A DNA stretch of 32,000 nucleotides. Source: an uncultured archaeon. GTDB taxonomy: Archaea > Asgardarchaeota > Thorarchaeia > Thorarchaeales > Thorarchaeaceae. The stretch spans positions 1 through 32,000 of the forward strand of contig CAZYLT010000020.1 in the NCBI GenBank assembly GCA_964648855.1, given 5' to 3'. The notes below the pieces were generated by a model, which had not been told where the DNA came from, did not search any database, and saw only the letters and a list, made by a program, of their open reading frames with translations. This document shows positions 4,609 through 32,000 of this stretch, one piece after another. The position numbers and the translations under genes are program-made. Within the stretch, counting starts at the first letter, position 1, and each line of letters starts with the position of its first letter.

Positions 4609-5769
4609 ATGGTAGAAATCGAACTTCAAAATCTACGGAAAACATTTGGCGAAGTGGTCGCGACTGATGAAGTAACTATGACACTAAAGGAAGGCGAGCT
4701 ATCAACATTACTCGGCCCATCCGGCTGTGGAAAGACTACACTTTTGCGTCTGATAGCAGGGTTCTATCGTCCTGATCATGGAAAAGTCTACTTTGATGAT
4801 AAAGACATGACTAGAGTTCCGCCACATAAGAGAAATACAGGTATGGTCTTCCAGAATTATGCTCTTTGGCCCCATATGAATGTCTATGACAATATTGCAT
4901 ATGGCCTAAAGATAAAGCGTGTAGATGGCATGAAATACAACAAAGCTGCAATCAACAAGAGGGTTGAAGCGGCTATTGATTTGGTTCACTTGGAGGGTTT
5001 GGGGGAGCGTCATGTACATCAGTTGTCGGGCGGACAACAGCAGAGAGTTTCACTAGCGCGTGCTCTTGTGATTGAGCCAGACGTTCTCCTCCTGGACGAA
5101 CCTCTGTCTAATCTTGATGCAAAACTCCGAACTGAGATGCGTGAGGAAATTATTCGGATTCAAAAGGAGCTATCAATCACAACCGTCTATGTGACTCATG
5201 ACCAACACGAAGCTCTCAGTATATCTGACCGAGTGGCTGTTATGGAGCATGGATATGTACAGCAATTCGGTACTCCTAGGGAGATATACCAACACCCTCA
5301 GACCATCTTTGTAGCAGACTTCATTGGTCAATGTACATTCATTGAAGGTAGCATCAATAGTCTAGGGAAATACATCCAAGTGCAGATACCAGATGGTCAG
5401 GTAATCGCTGGCAAGACGACTATTGAAGAATATCCATTTGAAGAGGGCGAACCTGTGAAGTGTGCCATTAGACCAGAAGATCTACATTTGGAGCGAACTG
5501 ATCCACGAGATAATGAGATTGTGGGAACTGTCAATCGGACCATATACATCGGAAATGCGTTGGAGGTCTATTTCTCAATCGGGGACATCTCAGCTCAATC
5601 GCTTCTCGACCCTGACCTTGAATTTGAATCAGGCGAAGAAATCCATCTCTTTGCTCCCCGACCTGAAGTCATGATACTTCCTCTTGGCGGAGTAGAAGCG
5701 CTCAGAAAGGTTCCTGGTCATCCTCTTGCCGAGGCAGCTGCACTAACTACTGCGGCATCGAGTGCCTAA
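4609..5769 (+). CDS. ABC transporter ATP-binding protein (FbpC/PotA-like) with C-terminal TOBE region
   Basis: Walker A GPSGCGKT, signature LSGGQQQR, Walker B LLLDEP, H-loop VTHDQ; GAGGTG SD. Confidence 0.95.
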   Translation: MVEIELQNLRKTFGEVVATDEVTMTLKEGELSTLLGPSGCGKTTLLRLIAGFYRPDHGKVYFDDKDMTRVPPHKRNTGMVFQNYALWPHMNVYDNIAYGLKIKRVDGMKYNKAAINKRVEAAIDLVHLEGLGERHVHQLSGGQQQRVSLARALVIEPDVLLLDEPLSNLDAKLRTEMREEIIRIQKELSITTVYVTHDQHEALSISDRVAVMEHGYVQQFGTPREIYQHPQTIFVADFIGQCTFIEGSINSLGKYIQVQIPDGQVIAGKTTIEEYPFEEGEPVKCAIRPEDLHLERTDPRDNEIVGTVNRTIYIGNALEVYFSIGDISAQSLLDPDLEFESGEEIHLFAPRPEVMILPLGGVEALRKVPGHPLAEAAALTTAASSA

Positions 5770-21952: not shown

Positions 21953-22005
21953 TGTGAACAACCCCCAACTTGCTAAGCGCTGCCAATTCATAGGTGGAAA
22001 TACAA

Positions 22006-22572
22006 ATGGTAACAGCCCTGTTCAAGGTGGTACTCATGGGTGATGGAAGTGTTGGAAAGACCAGTCTCCGTCGTTGCTACATGGGTGAAGGATTCAAGGC
22101 TCAGTATATGATCACCATCGGAGCGGATTTTGCAGTCAAGAAGATGCAGTTGGAAGGCGGACATGACGTGAGCATTCAGATTTGGGACTTGGCAGGTCAG
22201 GAGCACTTCAAGAGCGTTAGGTCAACCTTCTACAAGGGGACACAGGGTGCGCTTGCGGTGTATTCCACAGTTGAGAGGCAATCATACGAGAACATCAAGA
22301 AATGGTTGGACGAGTGCTGGACCAATGCCGGGAAGAAGATTCCCATAGTTCTGATTGGCAACAAGATTGACCTTAGACAACAATTCGAGAACAACCCCGC
22401 CATGAAGCAGACCATTGTCACCACTGAAGAGGGACAGCGGCTGGCTGATGATATAGCATCAAACGGCGTGCATACGTCATTCATTGAAACGTCTGCTAAA
22501 ACTGGTGAAAATGTTGAAGCAGCCTTTCTAGAGCTTGCAATAAAGATTCTTGAGGCTGGAGGCTTGGCCTAG
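22006..22572 (+). CDS. Rab-like small GTPase (Ras superfamily)
   Basis: G1 GDGSVGKTS, TIGADF, WDLAGQE, FYKG, NKID, ETSAK. ATG 22006 follows an AGGTGG SD. Confidence 0.92.
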   Translation: MVTALFKVVLMGDGSVGKTSLRRCYMGEGFKAQYMITIGADFAVKKMQLEGGHDVSIQIWDLAGQEHFKSVRSTFYKGTQGALAVYSTVERQSYENIKKWLDECWTNAGKKIPIVLIGNKIDLRQQFENNPAMKQTIVTTEEGQRLADDIASNGVHTSFIETSAKTGENVEAAFLELAIKILEAGGLA

Positions 22573-22663
22573 TCAAGCTTTCAACTTGTTTCTGTCTGTC
22601 TTCATAATGTTTTTAGATGCCCCCAAATCAGTCAATAATAGCATTGATTCTGCGGTGACTTGG

Positions 22664-23791
22664 ATGGACGATAATCAACTCTCATTGTTCCTACAAAGAA
22701 AAACATTGAAACCTGAGGCTGAACATGGTGGCGAGATTACCAGACGATTCTCAATGAACAAAGTTGGCAGGATGTTTGCTGCTGCCATGCAAGATAGAAC
22801 CATCCGCCTCTATGATGCCAAAACCTGCCAAGAGATGCAACGTGTACAGGATGAACATCTAACGACCTCCATTGATTTCAGTCCCCGCGGAGACATTGTT
22901 GCAACAGGAAGCGTAGGTCGCCTAGTCAAACTGTGGGATATCAAATCTGGGAAATTGATGGGCACTCTGGAAGGGCATGAATATCCTGTTCTCTCCCTCT
23001 CATTCTCACCTGATGGTGATAAGTTGGTCTCGGGGAGTGGCGACACTACACTACGAATTTGGGATGTTGATAACCTTCGCTTTATTCGAGAATTGAAAGG
23101 ACACACACTCTATGTTGTCAGTTGTGATTGGGACCCAATACACGACCGGATTGTATCATCATCAATCGATTCAACCATCCGCGAATGGAATGCATCCACT
23201 GGCGAGTTGCTTGCCGAGCATGACGACCATCGAACTGCTGTTCATCAGGTCCTATTTAACAGGGAAGGCTCACTTATGGCATCTGCCTCCTCCGATCACA
23301 GCATAATCCTGTGGAATACGGAAGGCAAACTTGACTCTCAAGAGACCCTCGTGGGACATAATGAGGAAGTTCGTGCCATCTCCTTCAGCAACAATGGAAA
23401 ATATCTGGTTTCAGGGTCTAGTGACAAAGAACTATACGTCTGGTCAATAGAGGATTATGGCATCAAAGGTCAAGCGAGAACTACGGGGGAAATTGATGGC
23501 TTAGAGTGGTATCCAAATGAGCTTGCATTCATAAGTTCTGACGGTACTGGTGCAATCATCCGCTGGGATGTCCGCGAACTGGAAGCTATGCTGAGCCCGT
23601 TTCAGAATCTTCTTGATGAAATCAAGGCAAATGATGATGAGAGCAAGAAGCAGGAATTCATTGAACGGTTCAACGAGATACAGGCTCAATATGATGAAGA
23701 GGCATTACGCGACAAACGGCTGTTCTATATCATGTGGCAATGCAAGCGAGAACTCGGCTTACTAAAAGGGAAGGTTCGAAAAAGAAGATAA
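22664..23791 (+). CDS. WD40-repeat beta-propeller protein with a C-terminal helical/basic tail
   Basis: About seven GH...WD-type repeats (VKLWD, LRIWD, IREWN, IILWN, LYVWS, IIRWD). Start probably ATG 22664. Confidence 0.92.
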   Translation: MDDNQLSLFLQRKTLKPEAEHGGEITRRFSMNKVGRMFAAAMQDRTIRLYDAKTCQEMQRVQDEHLTTSIDFSPRGDIVATGSVGRLVKLWDIKSGKLMGTLEGHEYPVLSLSFSPDGDKLVSGSGDTTLRIWDVDNLRFIRELKGHTLYVVSCDWDPIHDRIVSSSIDSTIREWNASTGELLAEHDDHRTAVHQVLFNREGSLMASASSDHSIILWNTEGKLDSQETLVGHNEEVRAISFSNNGKYLVSGSSDKELYVWSIEDYGIKGQARTTGEIDGLEWYPNELAFISSDGTGAIIRWDVRELEAMLSPFQNLLDEIKANDDESKKQEFIERFNEIQAQYDEEALRDKRLFYIMWQCKRELGLLKGKVRKRR

Positions 23792-23825: not shown

Positions 23826-24359
23826 CTAGTCTGTCTTTACTGAATCTACCATCACTTCACAGAGATTTTTGTAAGCATCCTCTACGTTTTGTCCCGTAAG
23901 AGCACTGGATTCAACGTAGATATGACCGTGTTTTTCTGCCCACTCTTTTCCCTCTTGGGTTGTGACAACCCGGCTCTCTTCAAGGTCTACTTTGTTGGCC
24001 ACAACTATGAGGGGGATCTCCCGACCCAGATTCTTGAAGCATTCGTTTTTCCAATTTTGGATATTAAGAAATGTTCTTCGCCTAGTGACATCGTACACGA
24101 GCAATCCACCTCTGGCTCCTCTGTAGAAACCCTGCCTCACTACTTCAAATCTTGGCTGGCCTGCTAAATCCCATACTTGCAGTACCACATTGGCATCTCT
24201 ATCGGGCATCTCGACTCTTTTGATGGCAAAGTCAGAACCAATAGTCCGCTTGTACTCCGATTGGAAGTGCTGTTGTGTGAATTGAACAGTAAGTGCGGTT
24301 TTTCCGACAGCACCGTCGCCAAGCATGACGATCTTGAAGCGATATTCAGCTGACATCAC
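23826..24359 (-). CDS. Rab-like small GTPase (Ras superfamily)
   Basis: GDGAVGKT, TIGSDF, WDLAGQP, FYRGA, LVYDVT, NKVD, ESSAL. Confidence 0.92.
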   Translation of the reverse strand: MMSAEYRFKIVMLGDGAVGKTALTVQFTQQHFQSEYKRTIGSDFAIKRVEMPDRDANVVLQVWDLAGQPRFEVVRQGFYRGARGGLLVYDVTRRRTFLNIQNWKNECFKNLGREIPLIVVANKVDLEESRVVTTQEGKEWAEKHGHIYVESSALTGQNVEDAYKNLCEVMVDSVKTD

Positions 24360-24533: not shown

Positions 24534-25386
24534 ATGGCGGTTGTAGCTCCTAACTATAGTCTATTCACAGCAATTATCCTGTTTCTCATCTTCATCCTTA
24601 ATTTCAATCCATGGAATAGGAAGCTCAGAAATACCCGAAATTCGCTCTTATTGATAATCGTGACAACATCGCTAGCAATACCGCTTCAAGTCTGGTTCAA
24701 CTATGATTTGGCTGCATACAATACAGGCGACACCTATCTATTGAATCTCCACCTAAATGCTTCGCTATTGCCGGGTGAGAAATATGAAATCCACCACGTG
24801 TCAAATTGGTATGCAGAGAGGGGAGCTCTCCTGGAAATATCAAATGAATCCCAAGGCATCGTATTCTACTTAGTCGATGAGAATATGCGGGGTACACGTT
24901 TCAACGAAATTCGCGTGAACGAATCCTGGTTCCGGGTTCTCCAATCCCTATGCTTTGTTTCGATTCAAACTTCCCTATTATCGTACATCCCTGTTTCAAA
25001 TAGCCAACTGGACGGTTTGCTTCACTAATCCACTTACAAATGAAACAATACCTCTAAACGTCCGTGGAATGTGGATGGAGGACTCAGAAGATCTCGCCCG
25101 TTGGAGGGTTTATCTTCCACGTACACAACCTGTTGTTGCACTGTTATGTCTGTGGGTATTCGTTCCATTGATTCTAATGGCGACTGAAAATATCAGTACA
25201 CATCAATTGGCTCAGAATCTACGTTTATTGATTGCAGCCTTGTTTTCGGCTGTGATTCACTTGCTTCTTTCTCTTCCGTTTATCAGTAGTATCATTTTCT
25301 TCGGTTTTTACCTTGTCTTTCCATTACCAATCGTTACTCTGGTTCTATACTACATCATCAAGAAACAAGAAGATACAACCCAGTGA
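24534..25386 (+). pseudogene. Membrane protein gene apparently split by a +1 frameshift (ORFs 24534-25028 and ~24919-25386)
   Basis: Two overlapping same-strand ORFs: the first has N-terminal TM helices, the second has C-terminal TM helices. Frame 2 is open from 24919 and has only a weak TTG start. Confidence 0.5.
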
Positions 25387-25601: not shown

Positions 25602-25988
25602 ATGGAACGACCTGATTATAGCACACTTGCCTCGATCCTTGAAGAGATGAACAAGGAGGGCGAATTTACCGCTTCTGTGCTTGCTAGAGATGACGGGCTA
25701 CTCATGGCATCTGCAGCCTCTCCGAAGACAAACCGAGAGGTTGTTGCTGCAATGTCTGGGTTTGTTGCCTCAACTGTGGAGCGCATGCGCGACGAGTTGG
25801 GTCTGGGCCAACTAAGGGATATCTCTGTGCGCTGCTCAATGGGTAAGGCTGTCTTCAAGAAGATTGCATCACAAGGGGAACAAGCACTCCTTATCGCCGC
25901 TATCATGCCAAGGAGCGTACGCTATCATCTTCGACCCATTGGCAAGGCTGCAACCAAGATAAGGTATGTCCTTGGGTATTCTGACTAG
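25602..25988 (+). CDS. Roadblock/LC7 (MglB-like) domain protein
   Basis: 128 aa; SVLARDDGLLMASA...VAAMSG pattern with an alpha-beta-beta-alpha-beta-beta-beta-alpha layout. Confidence 0.85.
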   Translation: MERPDYSTLASILEEMNKEGEFTASVLARDDGLLMASAASPKTNREVVAAMSGFVASTVERMRDELGLGQLRDISVRCSMGKAVFKKIASQGEQALLIAAIMPRSVRYHLRPIGKAATKIRYVLGYSD

Positions 25989-26079: not shown

Positions 26080-26406
26080 TTGGCAAAAGGGGACAAAAAG
26101 AACTCGGAAGATGACACCAATGCTACCGTTGAGATAGTCTTCTTCAAGTCCAATACGTGTGCTTTCTGTCCGAGAGCCGAAGAAGTGATAACGGATATGA
26201 TGGAGGATTTTGGAGAGTCCGCCCTTGAACTAACGATTATCAACGTATCTGAGAATCCAGGGGCAGCAGAAGAGTATGGAATCTTCGCTTTGCCAACCAC
26301 GATGATTGGCGGGGTATCAGTGACAGGTATTCCAGAGCCAGAAATATTGATGAAGATGATTCTCGGTTGTAAAATCTCCAGCAAGAGAGGTGTATTCAGT
26401 GAGTGA
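26080..26406 (+). CDS. Thioredoxin-fold protein with CxxC and a KaiB-like C-terminal half
   Basis: TCAFCP; INVSENPGAAEEYGIFALPT (cis-Pro loop); TTG start after an AGGAG SD; overlaps the next gene. Confidence 0.85.
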   Translation: MAKGDKKNSEDDTNATVEIVFFKSNTCAFCPRAEEVITDMMEDFGESALELTIINVSENPGAAEEYGIFALPTTMIGGVSVTGIPEPEILMKMILGCKISSKRGVFSE

Positions 26407-27145
26407 ATTCGAAATCGAACGCGTAAAGACAGGTATCACGGGACTAGATGACCTGATTCAAGGAGGATTCCCCCGTGGCGATACCATTCTGATTGCAGGG
26501 AAGGCAGGAACCGGAAAGACAATTTTCGTCAATCAGTTTCTGTATAAGGGTGTTGTGGAATATGGTGAGCCCGGCGTATTAGTCACCCTAGAAGAGCCTT
26601 CCAGAATGATCAAGAGAAACATGATGCAATTCGGAATGAACCTGGATAAAATCATCGGGGAGGAATTACTCAGCATCGTTGACCTCTCTCCCGCCAAAGA
26701 AGTCAAACGTGTTAAAATTGGCGAGTATCCTTCTTTTGACCTCTCAGGATTAGAGGCAATAATTCTCAATCATATGAATAAGATAGATGCACAACGGGTC
26801 GTCATTGATACGCTGTCCATTCTTGCATACAAGTTTAGTAGCAGAGACATCCTTCGTCAGGAGTTCTTTAAACTCGCGGCGAAACTCACAAAGGACGGTG
26901 CCACCCTCCTGTTGACAAGTGAAATCCCTGAGCATAAGGGCGGACTCGGTGTCTTTGACATTGAGGCCTTCTTGGCATCGGGAGTGGTTGTCCTCTATAA
27001 CGAAAAAATTAGTGATACATCTAGGTCCCGTAGCATTGAAATCCTAAAACTGCGTGGTACTCAACACAGCTCTCGAATACATTCGATGCGAATAACCGAT
27101 GAAGGTATTCGAGTCTACCCTGGTGAAATCAGTCCGGGACGATAA
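26399..27145 (+). CDS. Single-domain KaiC/RAD55-family ATPase (CI-like)
   Basis: TGITGLDDLIQGGFP, Walker A GKAGTGKT, VTLEE, Walker B RVVIDT, LTSE, ILKLRGT.H. GTG 26399 follows a GAGGTG SD. Confidence 0.9.
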   Translation: MSEFEIERVKTGITGLDDLIQGGFPRGDTILIAGKAGTGKTIFVNQFLYKGVVEYGEPGVLVTLEEPSRMIKRNMMQFGMNLDKIIGEELLSIVDLSPAKEVKRVKIGEYPSFDLSGLEAIILNHMNKIDAQRVVIDTLSILAYKFSSRDILRQEFFKLAAKLTKDGATLLLTSEIPEHKGGLGVFDIEAFLASGVVVLYNEKISDTSRSRSIEILKLRGTQHSSRIHSMRITDEGIRVYPGEISPGR

Positions 27146-27166
27146 TTCCCCCATGAGGCATGACCA

Positions 27167-27880
27167 ATGAATACATCCGCCCAAGGAAGCGAATCGGAAA
27201 GCCCAGCACGGGTATATCCGATGATTAGCGACTTGGTCGATTTTGGCCAACTCACTCAATTGTCTTTCATGTTGCTAGGGCCTATTGGGTCCGGAAAGAC
27301 AACTTATGCAGAAGCGTTTCTTGCAGAGGGACTCAGACTAGGATTTCCCGCAGTATTTGTTACAACGGATGTATCTCCCCGAGTCATCAGAAATGATATG
27401 AGCCGATATGGTTGGTCAATCGAAGAAGGAGAGGAAACGGGACAGTTTGTCTTCATCGATGGCTACTCCGAACGGATGGGGGCTCCAAAGGCAAAGTCCA
27501 CGCATTCACTTGCCAAGATTGATGACGTAAGCGAGCTGGGAATTGTGCTCTCTGAGGTCCTAGAAGATATGGTTGTCGCTAGGGTGGTCATCGACAGCCT
27601 CTCCACCTTAGTGCTCCACTCGGGACCAACAGCCATGCCTCGGTCGGTCCAGCGGCTAGCGGGGCGGCTGAAGCAAAATTCCCACAGTATCATGTTTGTT
27701 CTTGAGGATGGAGTTCATGACGATAAGACCTATGCAACATTTTCTTATCTTGCTGACTCGGTTCTTCGATTCAGAATTGAACATCAGGGAGATGTGTCGC
27801 GTCATCAAATTCGAATGGAACGAATGCGGGGCAGTGACGCTTCAAGAGACTGGCATGACTTCGTTATTGAGAGACCGTGA
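27167..27880 (+). CDS. Second, divergent single-domain KaiC/RAD55-family ATPase
   Basis: Walker A GPIGSGKT, FIDGYS, RVVIDSLS, FSYLADSV, ERMRG; catalytic EE replaced by TD (VTTDVS). Confidence 0.85.
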   Translation: MNTSAQGSESESPARVYPMISDLVDFGQLTQLSFMLLGPIGSGKTTYAEAFLAEGLRLGFPAVFVTTDVSPRVIRNDMSRYGWSIEEGEETGQFVFIDGYSERMGAPKAKSTHSLAKIDDVSELGIVLSEVLEDMVVARVVIDSLSTLVLHSGPTAMPRSVQRLAGRLKQNSHSIMFVLEDGVHDDKTYATFSYLADSVLRFRIEHQGDVSRHQIRMERMRGSDASRDWHDFVIERP

Positions 27881-27934: not shown

Positions 27935-30235
27935 GTGGAGTCGCTACTTAAAGCAGCACTAAGAGAGATACTATGTGCTTCGCTCTCCCTTGATGATGGC
28001 CTCACTACTATTCAGAATCTTGCAGTTGGAAATAAAAGGAACTCGGATTTGTTTTTTGAAGTAGCGAGAGCAATAGAAGAGATACTTCTGCGTCGTCCTG
28101 CTCCTGCCAGTGCCAAACTCACAGAATTGGAGGTACGCCTGTCAACTCGCAAGGACTCAACACTCCGTGATATGATTATGCTTCTTGATACGAGATACAC
28201 CACTGTGCATTGCAGAGCAGAAGCCGAAATTGCTCCTGATATGGATGCAATCCCCCGTCTTCTTGAGATATTGGCTGATCTAGAGCAGGGCATATCAACA
28301 GCAATTAGCCTTAATCTCAGACCTCTGCTTCCTTTCCTTGCTGATGAACTCATAATGACACTTGAGGCTCTTCATACCCGTTCGCATGAGGCATCAATTA
28401 GATTGGCATCATATGAGGCGCATCACACTGCATGGTTATTGTCAGAATCCGGTATTTTCGATTGTGCAGATGCGATTCTGAATCAACTGATGAAAATATC
28501 TGAGCACATGGGATTCGACAATCTCAGTTTTGAATCCACACTCGACGAGGCAGCTGTGCTCACAGAGCTCGGAATGTATGATGAATCAAGGAAATTGCTA
28601 CTCGATTTGCTCAGTCGGGCGGAAGAGGGAAATGATCCTATTCGGTTGGCAATGGTGAAGCTCCAGAAGGCAATAAATGAAACCCGTGATGACTCGATAT
28701 CTCATGACCAAGCTAGAAATACAGCCAATATAGCGGCAAGAATGTTCCAAGATATTCTTGATTACGGGGGTTTCTCAAAGGACGGCCTGGGATTGGTACA
28801 TCTCGTAATCGGCTCTAACATTCTGGCCAGTGGTTGGAGAGAGGCTGTGCCTGAGGCTTTAGATGGACTTGAGAATGCCCTCAATGTCTTTGGGTCTCTT
28901 GAAGAGATGAATGAAACCCAAAGAATACTCCACTTCAGAACCCTTGCTGGACTTGGCTTTTCGTATGGTATGATGGGGAATGACGACAACATAGTCAAGG
29001 GTCTTGAATATCTGGAGAGAGCCAAGATGGTTCTTCAAAAAACCGGGGACCATGATGAGATATTCGATATTGAAATTGCCAGATGTAATCATGCAATCGG
29101 ATGGTTATGTCTCTCTTGTGAAAGCGAAGAACATCTTGACCGGGGAAGAGAAGCATTTGAAAGAGCAATCGAAGCTCGAGAGCAATTCTTGGAACAGGGC
29201 AGAGTATCAGAATTAGTAGTTCTTGGTACAAAACTCGGGAAAACATTGCTTGAATTAAGAAATGATGACGAAAAAGACGCGCAAGGAATTGACCAAATCC
29301 AAGATGTCTTGGTCCGCTATGTCCCTCTCTTTCCAATTGACCCCCGCTCCTTCACCGAAATAGCAATTGCAACATATGACGTAGTATGGATATTATTCAG
29401 ACACGGCTTGACTCCTTCTCAGAGACTATTGCGTTTCTTCGACGATGTAGATAGGATGCTCCGCGATACAAGAGTTGGGGAGGACTCATTATTCATTCAG
29501 GGCGTATCCCTCATCGTTCCTCTGCTTAATGGCTCTTGGTCGCAACTATCTCGGCGAGCAAATGACATATCGAATGAAAAATCAGAGCTATCGGAAGTTG
29601 CGAAAGTGTTGGGCTGTCTTGCACATTCAAGAATCAACTTGGAAGCTACCAATCTAGAGGCTGGTCTAAGTATCCAACCAGAAATAAGTCAAAATGCAAT
29701 CGAATGTGATAGTCTTCTCGGCAACTATTGGATAGGTCAAAGGTCATTAGCAGCTACAGTCAAGTCGTATTATGAGAACAGAGATTATGAAGAATTAGCC
29801 TCTGGCCTATATGGAGCGTCCCAACAGCTAAAGGCAGTAGGTTCTGTTCGAACCAGTTTCGCTGAGTCAAGTGAATTCATCACTGCTACGGCAGTTTCGC
29901 TAGCAGAAGTTTTACTGAATACTGCAAAGGCTCTGTCTTCAACCTACTCGATTGAACTCGACGATGAACAAACAATCGCTACGGAATCCATTAGAGAAGT
30001 AAGAAATGTAGATTTTATTTTGCCTGATGATTGGTTGGGCCTACTTAAGATAACTAATTCTTATGTTAGAATGATAAAAGCCTCCGATGGAACTCACGCC
30101 TTGTCATACTTGAATGCTGTCTTCTCGAATATCTCCAGAGCCCTAAGAATGATGGATAATATTGCACTCATTGACCGTCGAGTCCTATCCCGTTTAGGGG
30201 AGGCAATGAATCGAAGATATTATCTCCGAAAATAG
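27935..30235 (+). CDS. Large alpha-helical (TPR-like) protein of unknown function
   Basis: 766-aa ORF, GTG start after a GAGGAG SD; TPR-like segments (ELGMYDESRKLL, GLEYLERAK, AFERAIEAR). Confidence 0.7.
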   Translation: MESLLKAALREILCASLSLDDGLTTIQNLAVGNKRNSDLFFEVARAIEEILLRRPAPASAKLTELEVRLSTRKDSTLRDMIMLLDTRYTTVHCRAEAEIAPDMDAIPRLLEILADLEQGISTAISLNLRPLLPFLADELIMTLEALHTRSHEASIRLASYEAHHTAWLLSESGIFDCADAILNQLMKISEHMGFDNLSFESTLDEAAVLTELGMYDESRKLLLDLLSRAEEGNDPIRLAMVKLQKAINETRDDSISHDQARNTANIAARMFQDILDYGGFSKDGLGLVHLVIGSNILASGWREAVPEALDGLENALNVFGSLEEMNETQRILHFRTLAGLGFSYGMMGNDDNIVKGLEYLERAKMVLQKTGDHDEIFDIEIARCNHAIGWLCLSCESEEHLDRGREAFERAIEAREQFLEQGRVSELVVLGTKLGKTLLELRNDDEKDAQGIDQIQDVLVRYVPLFPIDPRSFTEIAIATYDVVWILFRHGLTPSQRLLRFFDDVDRMLRDTRVGEDSLFIQGVSLIVPLLNGSWSQLSRRANDISNEKSELSEVAKVLGCLAHSRINLEATNLEAGLSIQPEISQNAIECDSLLGNYWIGQRSLAATVKSYYENRDYEELASGLYGASQQLKAVGSVRTSFAESSEFITATAVSLAEVLLNTAKALSSTYSIELDDEQTIATESIREVRNVDFILPDDWLGLLKITNSYVRMIKASDGTHALSYLNAVFSNISRALRMMDNIALIDRRVLSRLGEAMNRRYYLRK

Positions 30236-30239
30236 CGAA

Positions 30240-32000
30240 CTAGAATTCTTCATAGGGTTTGCTGCCAACAGGTCTATATTGTGTCGGCTTTGCGCCCCAA
30301 GTAACCCAGCCCGAAGTTTCGGTTCTCATTTCATTTGCCAGACCAAATGATTCACGCACTGGGATTTCGGCTTCTATCCTGTATAGTGCCTTTTCCGAAT
30401 CGATTTTCAAGACCTGTCCCTTTCGCCTGGCGAGAATTGATGTCAATATGCCAACGTAGTCCTCTGGGGCAGTTATCTCCAATCTAGTCCACGGCTCCAT
30501 TACAACGGGATCATCCGACATTATACTGTTTCTCAGAGCCTCAACAAGTGGTTGTGTCACATCCCGCCATGATGTTTCTGGGCTCTCAACTTTCAGTTTT
30601 GCCTTCTGAATTGAAGCTAGAAGCATTCTCATTCGCTCCCCTTGGACAGGCCCGTTTCGCGTGACAATTCTGAAGCCTTCTTTCACCCATTCGGCAATGT
30701 CACTATACGGGTCAATAGTACCGGTTGTATCAACCAAGTAACATTGAGCCTGTTCATCCTTCTCTATCACAGTTCCTTTGACATCTTCTAGTGCATCATT
30801 TTCAATGAGATTCGCTTTCACCCAGAACCTGCTTGTGTCCTCTGAACCTCCCTGAGCGGTTTTCGCCCTCGCTGTGAGCTGCTCCTTCAGCACAACCATT
30901 GGAGTACCTAATCGTAAGTGTACTCCCAATCTGGTTAGTTTTTCCACAGCAATCTCAACATGGAGCTCTCCAGCGCCTGAGAGCAGCATCTCCCCTGTTT
31001 CTGGATTCAATTCAAATTCTAACGTTGGGTCTGTACTCACAAACTCCTGAATGGGCTCCTGTATCTCGGAGAGTTCAGCCAATCGTCTAGGTTCAATTGT
31101 GTATGTGACGACTGGCTCAGTAGGATATTGAAGCGCAATCATCGGCTCCAACTCTGCAATATTCGGGCTGACAAGCGTATCACTGATTGAAACGTCTTTT
31201 ATCCCTGTGATGAATGCCAGATTACCGGCGGGTACCTCGTCAAGGGCAACTCGAGTCTTGGACATGTACACTCCAACTTGGAGACTCTTGTCCTTCTTTC
31301 TAGTCCTACGAGTCAGCAATGGCTCCCCTCGCCTGAGGACCCCAGAGAACACTCTAACAGTTGCCACGGTACCAGCGTGTCTGTCAGGTTGCACATCACT
31401 CACCAGCAGGATACACGGACCATTTGGGTCACAATTCATTAGGCTCTTGCCGCTGTCAGATTGAAGGTCGCCATCCCAAAATGCTGGAATTCTGTACTGT
31501 TGAGCATCAATCGGGTTGGGCACTGTCTTAACAACTGAGTCTAGTACAACTTCTGCAATGGGAAACTTCTCTTCAAGTTCTTCTTCCGTTTCATTCCTGT
31601 AGGAGTCTACTACTTCTTCCATCAATTCCATGAATACGTCGGCTAGAGATTCAGCATCTGATTCATCAGCTCGTGCCTTCAAGGTTTCAAGTCCAATTGC
31701 CCACTTGTCAAGCGCCGAACCGATTGAGAGCGAGTTCTTGGGAAAAGAAACCTCCCACTTTTCAAGAATTTCGTCTTCAAGATATTTTCCTAGCATCGCG
31801 TTAAATTCACGGGCTACTTTGTTCACCTCTTCGGCAACTTTCCGAGCCTGTAATCGTCGTTCGGTGACCAATCGGTCAACCTTGTTAATGAACAGAACAG
31901 GTCTAACTCTCTCCGCCATTGCCTGCCTTGTCACAGTCTCTGTCTGAACCATCAGCCCCTCGATGACATCAATGACAACAATTGCCCCATCAGTAAGTCG
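30240..32000 (-). CDS. Elongation factor 2 paralogue (aEF-2p-like); N-terminus lies beyond the window end
   Basis: Frame is open to 32000 (RLTDGAIVVIDVIEGLMVQTETV); INKVDR, RVFSG, GAGELHVEI, EIPVRESFG. The diphthamide H-R-G loop is replaced by ESPETSWRD. Confidence 0.88.
   Translation of the reverse strand, partial: RLTDGAIVVIDVIEGLMVQTETVTRQAMAERVRPVLFINKVDRLVTERRLQARKVAEEVNKVAREFNAMLGKYLEDEILEKWEVSFPKNSLSIGSALDKWAIGLETLKARADESDAESLADVFMELMEEVVDSYRNETEEELEEKFPIAEVVLDSVVKTVPNPIDAQQYRIPAFWDGDLQSDSGKSLMNCDPNGPCILLVSDVQPDRHAGTVATVRVFSGVLRRGEPLLTRRTRKKDKSLQVGVYMSKTRVALDEVPAGNLAFITGIKDVSISDTLVSPNIAELEPMIALQYPTEPVVTYTIEPRRLAELSEIQEPIQEFVSTDPTLEFELNPETGEMLLSGAGELHVEIAVEKLTRLGVHLRLGTPMVVLKEQLTARAKTAQGGSEDTSRFWVKANLIENDALEDVKGTVIEKDEQAQCYLVDTTGTIDPYSDIAEWVKEGFRIVTRNGPVQGERMRMLLASIQKAKLKVESPETSWRDVTQPLVEALRNSIMSDDPVVMEPWTRLEITAPEDYVGILTSILARRKGQVLKIDSEKALYRIEAEIPVRESFGLANEMRTETSGWVTWGAKPTQYRPVGSKPYEEF

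Follow-up and report, generated by a model that had tools for sequence, protein, structure and literature searches.

Archaeal KaiC-like proteins, including some with inactivated KaiC (iKaiC) domains, reportedly form modules that Makarova, Galperin and Koonin described in 2017 (mBio 8:e01959-17, cited in PMC5847659) as a "signal transduction hub". Here we describe a related arrangement in a 32,000-nucleotide stretch (the window hereafter) of the forward strand of contig CAZYLT010000020.1, which belongs to an archaeon of the family Thorarchaeaceae (assembly GCA_964648855.1). Its central element is an operon in which the gene of a CxxC thioredoxin (hereafter Trx; 26080-26406, plus strand) is followed by the genes of a single-domain KaiC-like ATPase (A1; 26390-27145, plus strand) and of a KaiC-like paralogue (A2; 27167-27880, plus strand). 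The likeness to the archaeal hubs is evident in the pairing of a single-domain KaiC-family ATPase with a paralogue that lacks catalytic residues, in the putative input and output neighbours, and in the restriction to one lineage. In the present case the partner within the operon is a CxxC thioredoxin with overlapping stop and start codons, and the neighbours are a Roadblock protein and a Rab-like GTPase. A2 also keeps an intact Walker A motif, whereas several paralogues of the iKaiC type were seen without one.

The cyanobacterial clock provides a second comparison. In the KaiB-KaiC and SasA-CI systems (5JWO, 5JWR, 6X61), as in the operon, a small thioredoxin-fold gene immediately precedes a gene of the KaiC family; the model of Trx can be superposed on fold-switched KaiB, and A1 on the CI domain of KaiC, with a B-loop region of CI length. 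The differences are nevertheless considerable. Trx has an invariant CxxC motif, stays below the Pfam cut-off for KaiB and lies outside the KaiB clade, the KaiC-like proteins are single-domain, and neither KaiA nor KaiB was found in the genome that carries the operon. Schmelling et al. (PMC5520375) encountered KaiB only together with full-length KaiC.

Two further precedents concern the thioredoxin itself. Its best sequence match is to the small archaeal thioredoxins of the MJ0307 type (1FO5, E 4e-12; 1NHO), with which it shares the minimal beta-alpha-beta-alpha-beta-beta-alpha fold, the CxxC motif and the cis-proline. It differs from them in its score against the MJ0307 family model TIGR00411 (53.9 bits, below the equivalog cut-off of 92.75), in the unusual dipeptide of its CAFC motif and in being dedicated to a KaiC operon. 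The other precedent is the thioredoxin of E. coli, which in its reduced state binds a loop of T7 DNA polymerase (1T7P); there a CxxC thioredoxin acts by non-covalent binding to a partner loop and not by reduction. Chain B of 1T7P is among the fold matches of the Trx model, but the comparison is no more than an analogy, and nothing in sequence or genome links that complex to the operon.

Finally, small GTPase genes stand beside Roadblock genes in MglA-MglB and in the Rab/Rag-Roadblock pairs of Asgard archaea (PMC10933270). The Rab-like protein considered here is the orthologue of Thor-Rab, and its pair differs from those described in being joined to a Trx-KaiC module. The structural paper on Thor-Rab and Roadblock names neither KaiC nor thioredoxin; it reports that pairs of GTPase and regulator are difficult to deduce from the arrangement of genes and that the regulators of Thor-Rab are unknown (PMC10933270).

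A conserved and translationally coupled operon

The co-directional block begins with the Roadblock/LC7 gene (25602-25988, plus strand; PF03259, 27.2 bits; PDB 7F8M Robl_LC7, E 2e-5) and continues with Trx, A1, A2 and an open reading frame (ORF) for a protein of 766 amino acids (aa) that has no match in Pfam or NCBIfam (27935-30235, plus strand). Upstream of the operon lie the Rab-like GTPase gene (23826-24359, minus strand; Pfam Ras, 177 bits), whose product is orthologous to the Thorarchaeota Rab that has been crystallised (PDB 7EZB, E 3e-84), a WD40 protein gene and a second Rab-like GTPase gene. The Trx stop codon, TGA at 26404-26406, is overlapped by either of the two possible A1 starts, GTG at 26390 (251 aa) or GTG at 26399 (248 aa, the length in public gene calls), and A2 begins 21 nucleotides after the A1 stop, a layout that a first-pass annotation of the window had described correctly.

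The order Roadblock-Trx-A1-A2-766-aa gene is collinear in 19 of 19 loci from 16 genera of the family, and in all of the named Thorarchaeota loci with enough flanking sequence (about 50 of 50); by virtue of this collinearity the arrangement is far beyond chance. The synteny in relatives on which the first-pass annotation had made its proposal depend is therefore present. Counted gene by gene, Roadblock stands upstream of Trx in 50 loci, the Thor-Rab gene is a neighbour in 44, and the 766-aa protein is found downstream in 56 (44-57% identical within the Thorarchaeota family). The stop codon of Trx overlaps the first possible start of A1 in 56 of 63 loci, and in 42 of them the overlap is of the 4-nucleotide ATGA type. 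A locus from a sister family (L075; A2 52% identical) has Rab, Roadblock, Trx (CAFC), A1 and A2 packed on one strand, and the 766-aa gene is absent there. These loci show that Roadblock, Trx, A1 and A2, beside Thor-Rab, constitute a conserved and translationally coupled block. No A2 orthologue was found in one genome of the window's own genus (G001, 90% complete), and neither an A1 nor an A2 orthologue in another Thorarchaeota genome (G018, 88% complete), where the sole Trx is a paralogue (63.6 bits); this reflects either gene loss or incompleteness of the genomes.

Among the 151 genomes of the phylum that were surveyed, orthologues of A1 and Trx are restricted to the Thor order. Trx-KaiC pairs also exist in two other Asgard lineages. 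In two closed genomes of Atabeyarchaeia a Trx gene immediately precedes and overlaps an A1-like KaiC gene. Both genes belong to a conserved block (L081 3102-5414, L082 3274-5639) that consists of three small ORFs without a Pfam match, Trx (CGFC), KaiC, whose catalytic pair reads FEQ, and a RagA/Gtr1-like GTPase. In L081 only, a tetratricopeptide repeat (TPR) protein of 434 aa adjoins this block; the 152-aa upstream ORF was rejected as a Roadblock candidate, showing no such similarity by BLASTP or Pfam. One metagenome-assembled genome of Heimdallarchaeota (L097) has a CxxS Trx-like ORF, Trx (CAFC), KaiC and then a KaiC-like gene of the DUF7504 type. The first of these ORFs (5074-5427, minus strand; 117 aa) carries the monothiol motif CSRS and overlaps the start of the CxxC Trx gene that precedes the KaiC pair, which places a redox-impaired and a redox-competent Trx fold in tandem beside KaiC. 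The one gene that stands with Trx in each of the three Asgard lineages with such pairs is that of the active KaiC-like ATPase. About 78 other single-domain KaiC loci of archaea, most of them from DPANN, were without an adjacent Trx. The operon is real, conserved and Asgard-specific; we read it as a KaiC-like signalling hub that includes an inactive paralogue and is linked to a Roadblock/Rab pair.

The thioredoxin and the two KaiC-like proteins

Trx, a protein of 108 aa with the motif CAFC and a cis-proline in ALPT, matches PF13192 (Thioredoxin_3) with 33.3 bits (cut-off 24.8) and the KaiB family PF07689 with 23.4 bits, under the cut-off of 27. Both cysteines of the CxxC motif and the cis-proline are kept in 63 of 63 orthologues. 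The AlphaFold2 model (predicted local distance difference test, pLDDT, 81) has thioredoxins as its 50 top Foldseek matches out of 50. In VIA-align comparisons, CI-bound fold-switched KaiB (5JWR_D, Z 12.4; 5JWO_B, Z 12.3; 1.8-1.9 Å, 22% identity) ties with the best thioredoxins (Z 13.1), and since the model superposes on KaiB as it does on true thioredoxins, the KaiB-like fold does not discriminate. The same holds for profiles: hhalign scores 62.0 for operon Trx against KaiB, 60.3 for housekeeping Asgard thioredoxins against KaiB, and 159 for operon against housekeeping thioredoxins. In the tree, KaiB forms a clade of its own (100/100 support) at the end of a very long branch, and all CxxC thioredoxins, operon Trx included, fall outside it. 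The segment in which the first-pass annotation saw a resemblance to KaiB does show one, but ordinary thioredoxins are equally alike, and the attribution of KaiB-like features to the protein has to be given up: Trx is a true CxxC thioredoxin, not KaiB, and its closeness to KaiB does not exceed that of ordinary Asgard thioredoxins.

KaiB was not found in the genome (94.6% complete), where the best PF07689 match is operon Trx itself (23.2 bits), and control genomes without a true KaiB likewise give sub-threshold matches. A search of the same genome for KaiA (PF07688) gave no match either, in agreement with the first-pass annotation. The genome does hold several other thioredoxins, among them better-scoring ones, of which one adjoins a thioredoxin reductase (TrxR)-like gene, and two TrxR-like genes in total, from which it follows that operon Trx is a dedicated paralogue. 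A Trx domain (45-63 bits with the operon-Trx profile) also occurs in open frames of about 490-670 aa in several Asgard genomes (e.g. G075:C4:582489-582710 and G039:C36:29395-29622), which are a recurrent family of Trx fusions. The best outgroup match, a 308-aa frame in G033, was discarded: it is a Trx extended at its C terminus by an unrelated stretch, and no KaiC lies nearby.

A1 matches PF06745 with 234 bits (gathering threshold 26.6) and scores 165-182 bits against KaiC CI and 63-67 bits against CII. On the CI structure it superposes with Z 31.4 and a root-mean-square deviation (rmsd) of 1.8 Å over 221 residues at 41% identity. Its conserved motifs are the Walker A sequence GKAGTGKT, the catalytic LEE (VTLEE), the Walker B sequence VVIDT, the LRG arginine (LKLRG) and IEAFLASG; the three that had been quoted earlier, VTLEE, IEAFLASG and LKLRG, are real and conserved, and the CI likeness then proposed is borne out. 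These features identify A1 as a predicted active single-domain KaiC-like ATPase that is strongly CI-like. Against the full-length KaiC models TIGR02655 and PRK09302, A1 scores 207 and 174 bits (cut-offs 408 and 546), and both A1 and A2 align only to the CI half of these models; the two proteins are encoded by separate genes (251 and 237 aa), whereas circadian KaiC has two tandem domains in about 500 aa. Scores against the ArlH/FlaH models NF052589 and PRK06067 are also below the cut-offs (51 and 68 bits versus 215 and 194), and no archaellum genes are present near the operon in the window.

A2 is more divergent, matching PF06745 with 108 bits and DUF7504 with 38 bits. It keeps Walker A (GP[LI]GSGKT), Walker B, the RMRG arginine and the segment TYATFSY, and TTDV replaces LEE in 76 of 76 orthologues, so the loss of the EE pair noted in the first-pass annotation extends to the whole family. 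Because the Walker motifs and RMRG are retained while TTDV is fixed, A2 is stable and not a decaying gene; it is an ATP-binding subunit that is probably dead for hydrolysis. With a predicted KaiC fold and its catalytic carboxylates lost, A2 is classed as an inactivated KaiC-like (iKaiC) paralogue.

Competing explanations for the module

The reading that we hold to be probable, albeit with considerable reserve, is that of a lineage-specific archaeal KaiC-like hub with a redox-type Trx input, neither a clock nor a split KaiC. A1 and A2 would assemble into a mixed RecA-type ring, in which A1 would provide catalysis and A2 nucleotide binding and an arginine finger, possibly also a phospho-acceptor at S193. 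Trx would act as the redox input, its dithiol or disulfide state being set by the thioredoxin reductase system of the cell. By analogy, this state may alter the non-covalent binding of Trx to A1, and binding would then gate the ATPase or autokinase state; the output would pass to the Roadblock/Rab pair and, in Thorarchaeota, also to a TPR-like scaffold. We propose non-covalent binding on the precedents of reduced E. coli thioredoxin on its T7 DNA polymerase loop and of KaiB and SasA on the B-loop of KaiC CI. Cysteine patterns constrain the mechanism further: A1 has a median of one cysteine per protein and A2 of none, and none is conserved in either, so that Trx cannot act on them by disulfide exchange and they are not its disulfide substrates. 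The hub with a redox input is supported by the collinear operon, the minimal core seen in L075, the stop/start overlap, the invariant CxxC, this lack of conserved cysteines in A1 and A2, and the Trx-KaiC pairs of Atabeyarchaeia and Heimdallarchaeota set against their absence from the roughly 78 other loci.

Several observations weigh in the opposite direction. Synteny in Thorarchaeota spans about 10 kb and includes a wider block from Rab-WD40-Rab to an EF-2 paralogue, and part of the conservation of the operon is therefore plain relatedness. The tethered A1-A2 model described below has a predicted template modelling score (pTM) of 0.54, and contact between the two proteins is thus not confidently predicted. 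Natural Trx-KaiC fusions are absent from the longer relatives of operon Trx and from the 120 best relatives of A1, which are all 244-256 aa, each a weak negative. In trees, the KaiCs linked to Trx do not come together as a single clade across the three lineages, and the tree placement of the linked thioredoxins leaves their branching unsettled, so a single origin is not demonstrated. Lastly, Roadblock, Rab and the 766-aa protein have conserved single cysteines, which makes their reduction by classical disulfide chemistry a live alternative.

According to this alternative, which we regard as possible though rather doubtful, Trx reduces a regulatory disulfide, probably one between molecules, that involves C78 of Roadblock, C167 of Thor-Rab, or C14 or C392 of the 766-aa protein, and the KaiC-like pair serves as scaffold or energy source without any KaiB-like docking on A1. 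The invariance of both Trx cysteines implies that redox cycling is under selection, and the partner cysteines are 84-98% conserved, with C78 and C167 each reaching 98%. Roadblock proteins are dimers, for which an intersubunit disulfide is conceivable. The partners vary, however: the Roadblock of L075 lacks the cysteine equivalent to C78 and its locus the 766-aa gene, and the Atabeyarchaeia and Heimdall loci have different neighbours altogether. The tightest coupling, moreover, joins Trx to A1, the very protein without a conserved cysteine.

It appears unlikely that the ancestor of kaiB-kaiC has a surviving relative, or an independent re-invention, in the Asgard trx-kaiC pair. A CxxC thioredoxin would then dock on the CI-type B-loop of a single-domain KaiC and KaiB would have arisen through loss of the cysteines, while the Thorarchaeota module would be a redox-gated switch or hourglass in which A1 phosphorylates the dead A2 at S193 and a eukaryote-like Rab is controlled through Roadblock. 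For about 70 of 80 bacterial kaiC genes, a hidden Markov model (HMM) of operon Trx picks up the upstream ORF, presumed to be kaiB, with weak scores (14-26 bits), and 65 of 67 presumed KaiB ORFs in this position have no CxxC. A quick tree had Trx-linked KaiCs as the sister group of CI with a support of 88 in the Shimodaira-Hasegawa-like approximate likelihood ratio test (SH-aLRT), but a careful tree that included CII and canonical KaiCs recovered this grouping in 0% of bootstraps; only the Heimdall Trx-linked KaiC pairs with a CI domain (93/89), namely the CI half of P0002. The sister-group relationship is thus neither shown nor excluded. P0002 is a double-domain KaiC of 497 aa from a metagenome (JGI/Logan), and its halves are unusually close to A1 (41% and 34%). 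A CI-type B-loop was rejected as a mark of Trx-linked KaiCs, its length being 41-42 residues there and 42-53 in unlinked Asgard KaiC-like proteins, and the FD.L motif is a weak, post hoc hint.

We consider it very unlikely that, as the first-pass annotation had it, A1 and A2 correspond to the CI and CII halves of a split or pre-fusion KaiC, stacked in a double ring and governed by a redox-active KaiB analogue as a proto-KaiBC timer. The pronounced CI character of A1 would fit such a timer, as would the succession of a thioredoxin-fold gene and a KaiC gene, which mirrors kaiB-kaiC. The serine reported for A2 at the CII phosphosites, the S431/T432 columns, is also there: S193 is invariant, and its alignment column holds Ser or Thr in 20 of 32 CII domains, Glu or Asp in 26 of 32 CI domains, Glu in 14 of 20 single-domain proteins and Ala in A1. 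In the Heimdall locus, the product of the second KaiC-like gene has no Ser or Thr at this column. A2 nonetheless resembles CI more than CII in every comparison, with 50 versus 26 bits against PDB KaiC and 68.6 versus 37.4 bits against the N and C halves of P0002. Using HMMs built from 32 CI, 32 CII and 20 single-domain sequences, CI outscored CII in 76 of 76 A2 orthologues (mean scores: single-domain 89, CI 85, CII 68). Its B-loop region, measured from the beta-strand Asp to the Walker B Asp, comprises 44 residues, as compared with 27-34 in CII and medians of 38 in CI and 44.5 in single-domain proteins.

Trees lead to the same answer once they are adequately sampled. A first tree without paralogues of A2, which gave it a branch 2.69 long, did not reject a grouping of A2 with CII in the approximately unbiased (AU) test (p 0.67). 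Addition of the 12 nearest Asgard paralogues, many of them EE-less, shortened the A2 stem to 0.74; A2 then grouped with four EE-less single-domain Asgard paralogues (ultrafast bootstrap 97, SH-aLRT 82), and its union with CII was rejected (difference in log-likelihood 54.3, p-AU 0.0001). The earlier p value is thereby proved a sampling artefact, while attraction among fast-evolving inactive paralogues remains a caveat on this tree. The hydroxyl that A2 presents at the CII phosphosite column is thus a matter of convergence and not of descent.

The junction between the two genes and the predicted structure agree with this. In the window A1 and A2 share a reading frame but are separated by two stops. 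Among 68 loci the two genes are in frame in 27, roughly the proportion expected by chance, and each of the three stop codons is in use; programmed stop-codon readthrough was rejected on these grounds. When the stop-readthrough chain was modelled with AlphaFold2, both of its domains came out folded (mean pLDDT 78.7). Full-length KaiC superposes on this model over about 430 residues with an rmsd of 12.8 Å and Z 31.5, no better than the Z 31.4 of CI alone, and stacking of CI on CII is accordingly not predicted; as the model is of a monomeric chain, this is a weak negative. With Trx outside the KaiB clade and KaiA and KaiB missing from the genome, the claim of CI and CII as separate, pre-fusion genes falls, and descent from a split KaiC is already largely refuted.

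It is even more improbable that the genes are neighbours without a common function, a housekeeping Trx that chance has placed ahead of generic KaiC-like genes within a conserved region. Thorarchaeota synteny does reach well past the operon, and KaiC-like genes are numerous, with 9 PF06745 matches in the genome. Against this, the adjacency of Trx and KaiC, their ORFs overlapping or abutting, is met again in Atabeyarchaeia and in a Heimdallarchaeote within otherwise different neighbourhoods; better-scoring thioredoxins exist elsewhere in the genome, including the one beside a TrxR-like gene; and the stop/start overlap is widely kept in Thorarchaeota. An assignment of the ATPases to RadA/RadB/Rad55-type recombination mediators with an unrelated Trx has next to no probability and is already refuted at the family level, because beyond the common RecA-superfamily fold and weak NCBIfam RadA/RadB matches (E 4e-4 to 7e-3) that span the N-terminal P-loop region alone (about 40-80 residues), KaiC models match at E 1e-61 (A1) and 1e-18 to 1e-22 (A2), as the KaiC assignment of the first-pass annotation would have it, the A1-A2 model finds its best structural matches exclusively in KaiC and the KaiC-like PH0186 and PH0284, and there are no DNA-repair neighbours.

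Surrounding genes and the meaning of the module

The 766-aa protein is nearest to TPR clusters by Atlas features (0.94, a lead only), and it is probably a TPR-like helical repeat scaffold. Further upstream, the second Rab-like GTPase gene overlaps the start of the WD40 propeller gene (22550-22572, within 21994-23791 of the window); this pair is kept in 35-44 Thorarchaeota loci and not in L075. Between the Rab and Roadblock genes, at 24534-25386, lie two overlapping ORFs for hydrophobic products of 164 and 143 aa, with no Pfam match. A tblastn comparison with about 59 related loci found neither of them, and the gap between Rab and Roadblock in those loci is about 650 nucleotides as opposed to 1243 in the window; the two ORFs are either a lineage-specific insertion or spurious. 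Downstream, a gene for an EF-2 paralogue (30240-32000, minus strand) runs past the end of the window. It is the downstream neighbour in 47 loci, its identity being 57-64% inside the family and 43% in L075. A further Thioredoxin_3 match (29 bits) is present on the same contig at G000:C20:34919-35155, about 3 kb past the end of the window and about 5 kb downstream of the operon.

KaiC-family ATPases are regarded as major signalling hubs of archaea, but inputs and outputs are known for almost none of them. The layout of the operon suggests both: as input a dedicated redox-type Trx, translationally coupled to the active ATPase, and as output a Roadblock protein together with the crystallised Thor-Rab. 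The Trx-KaiC pair of Atabeyarchaeia, located beside a Rag-like GTPase, further suggests that in the archaeal relatives of eukaryotes redox state, a KaiC-type switch and small GTPases of eukaryote-like type are linked recurrently. The operon thereby offers a concrete and testable system for how a thioredoxin-fold protein could first have come to regulate a KaiC ring, and it bears on the origin of KaiB.

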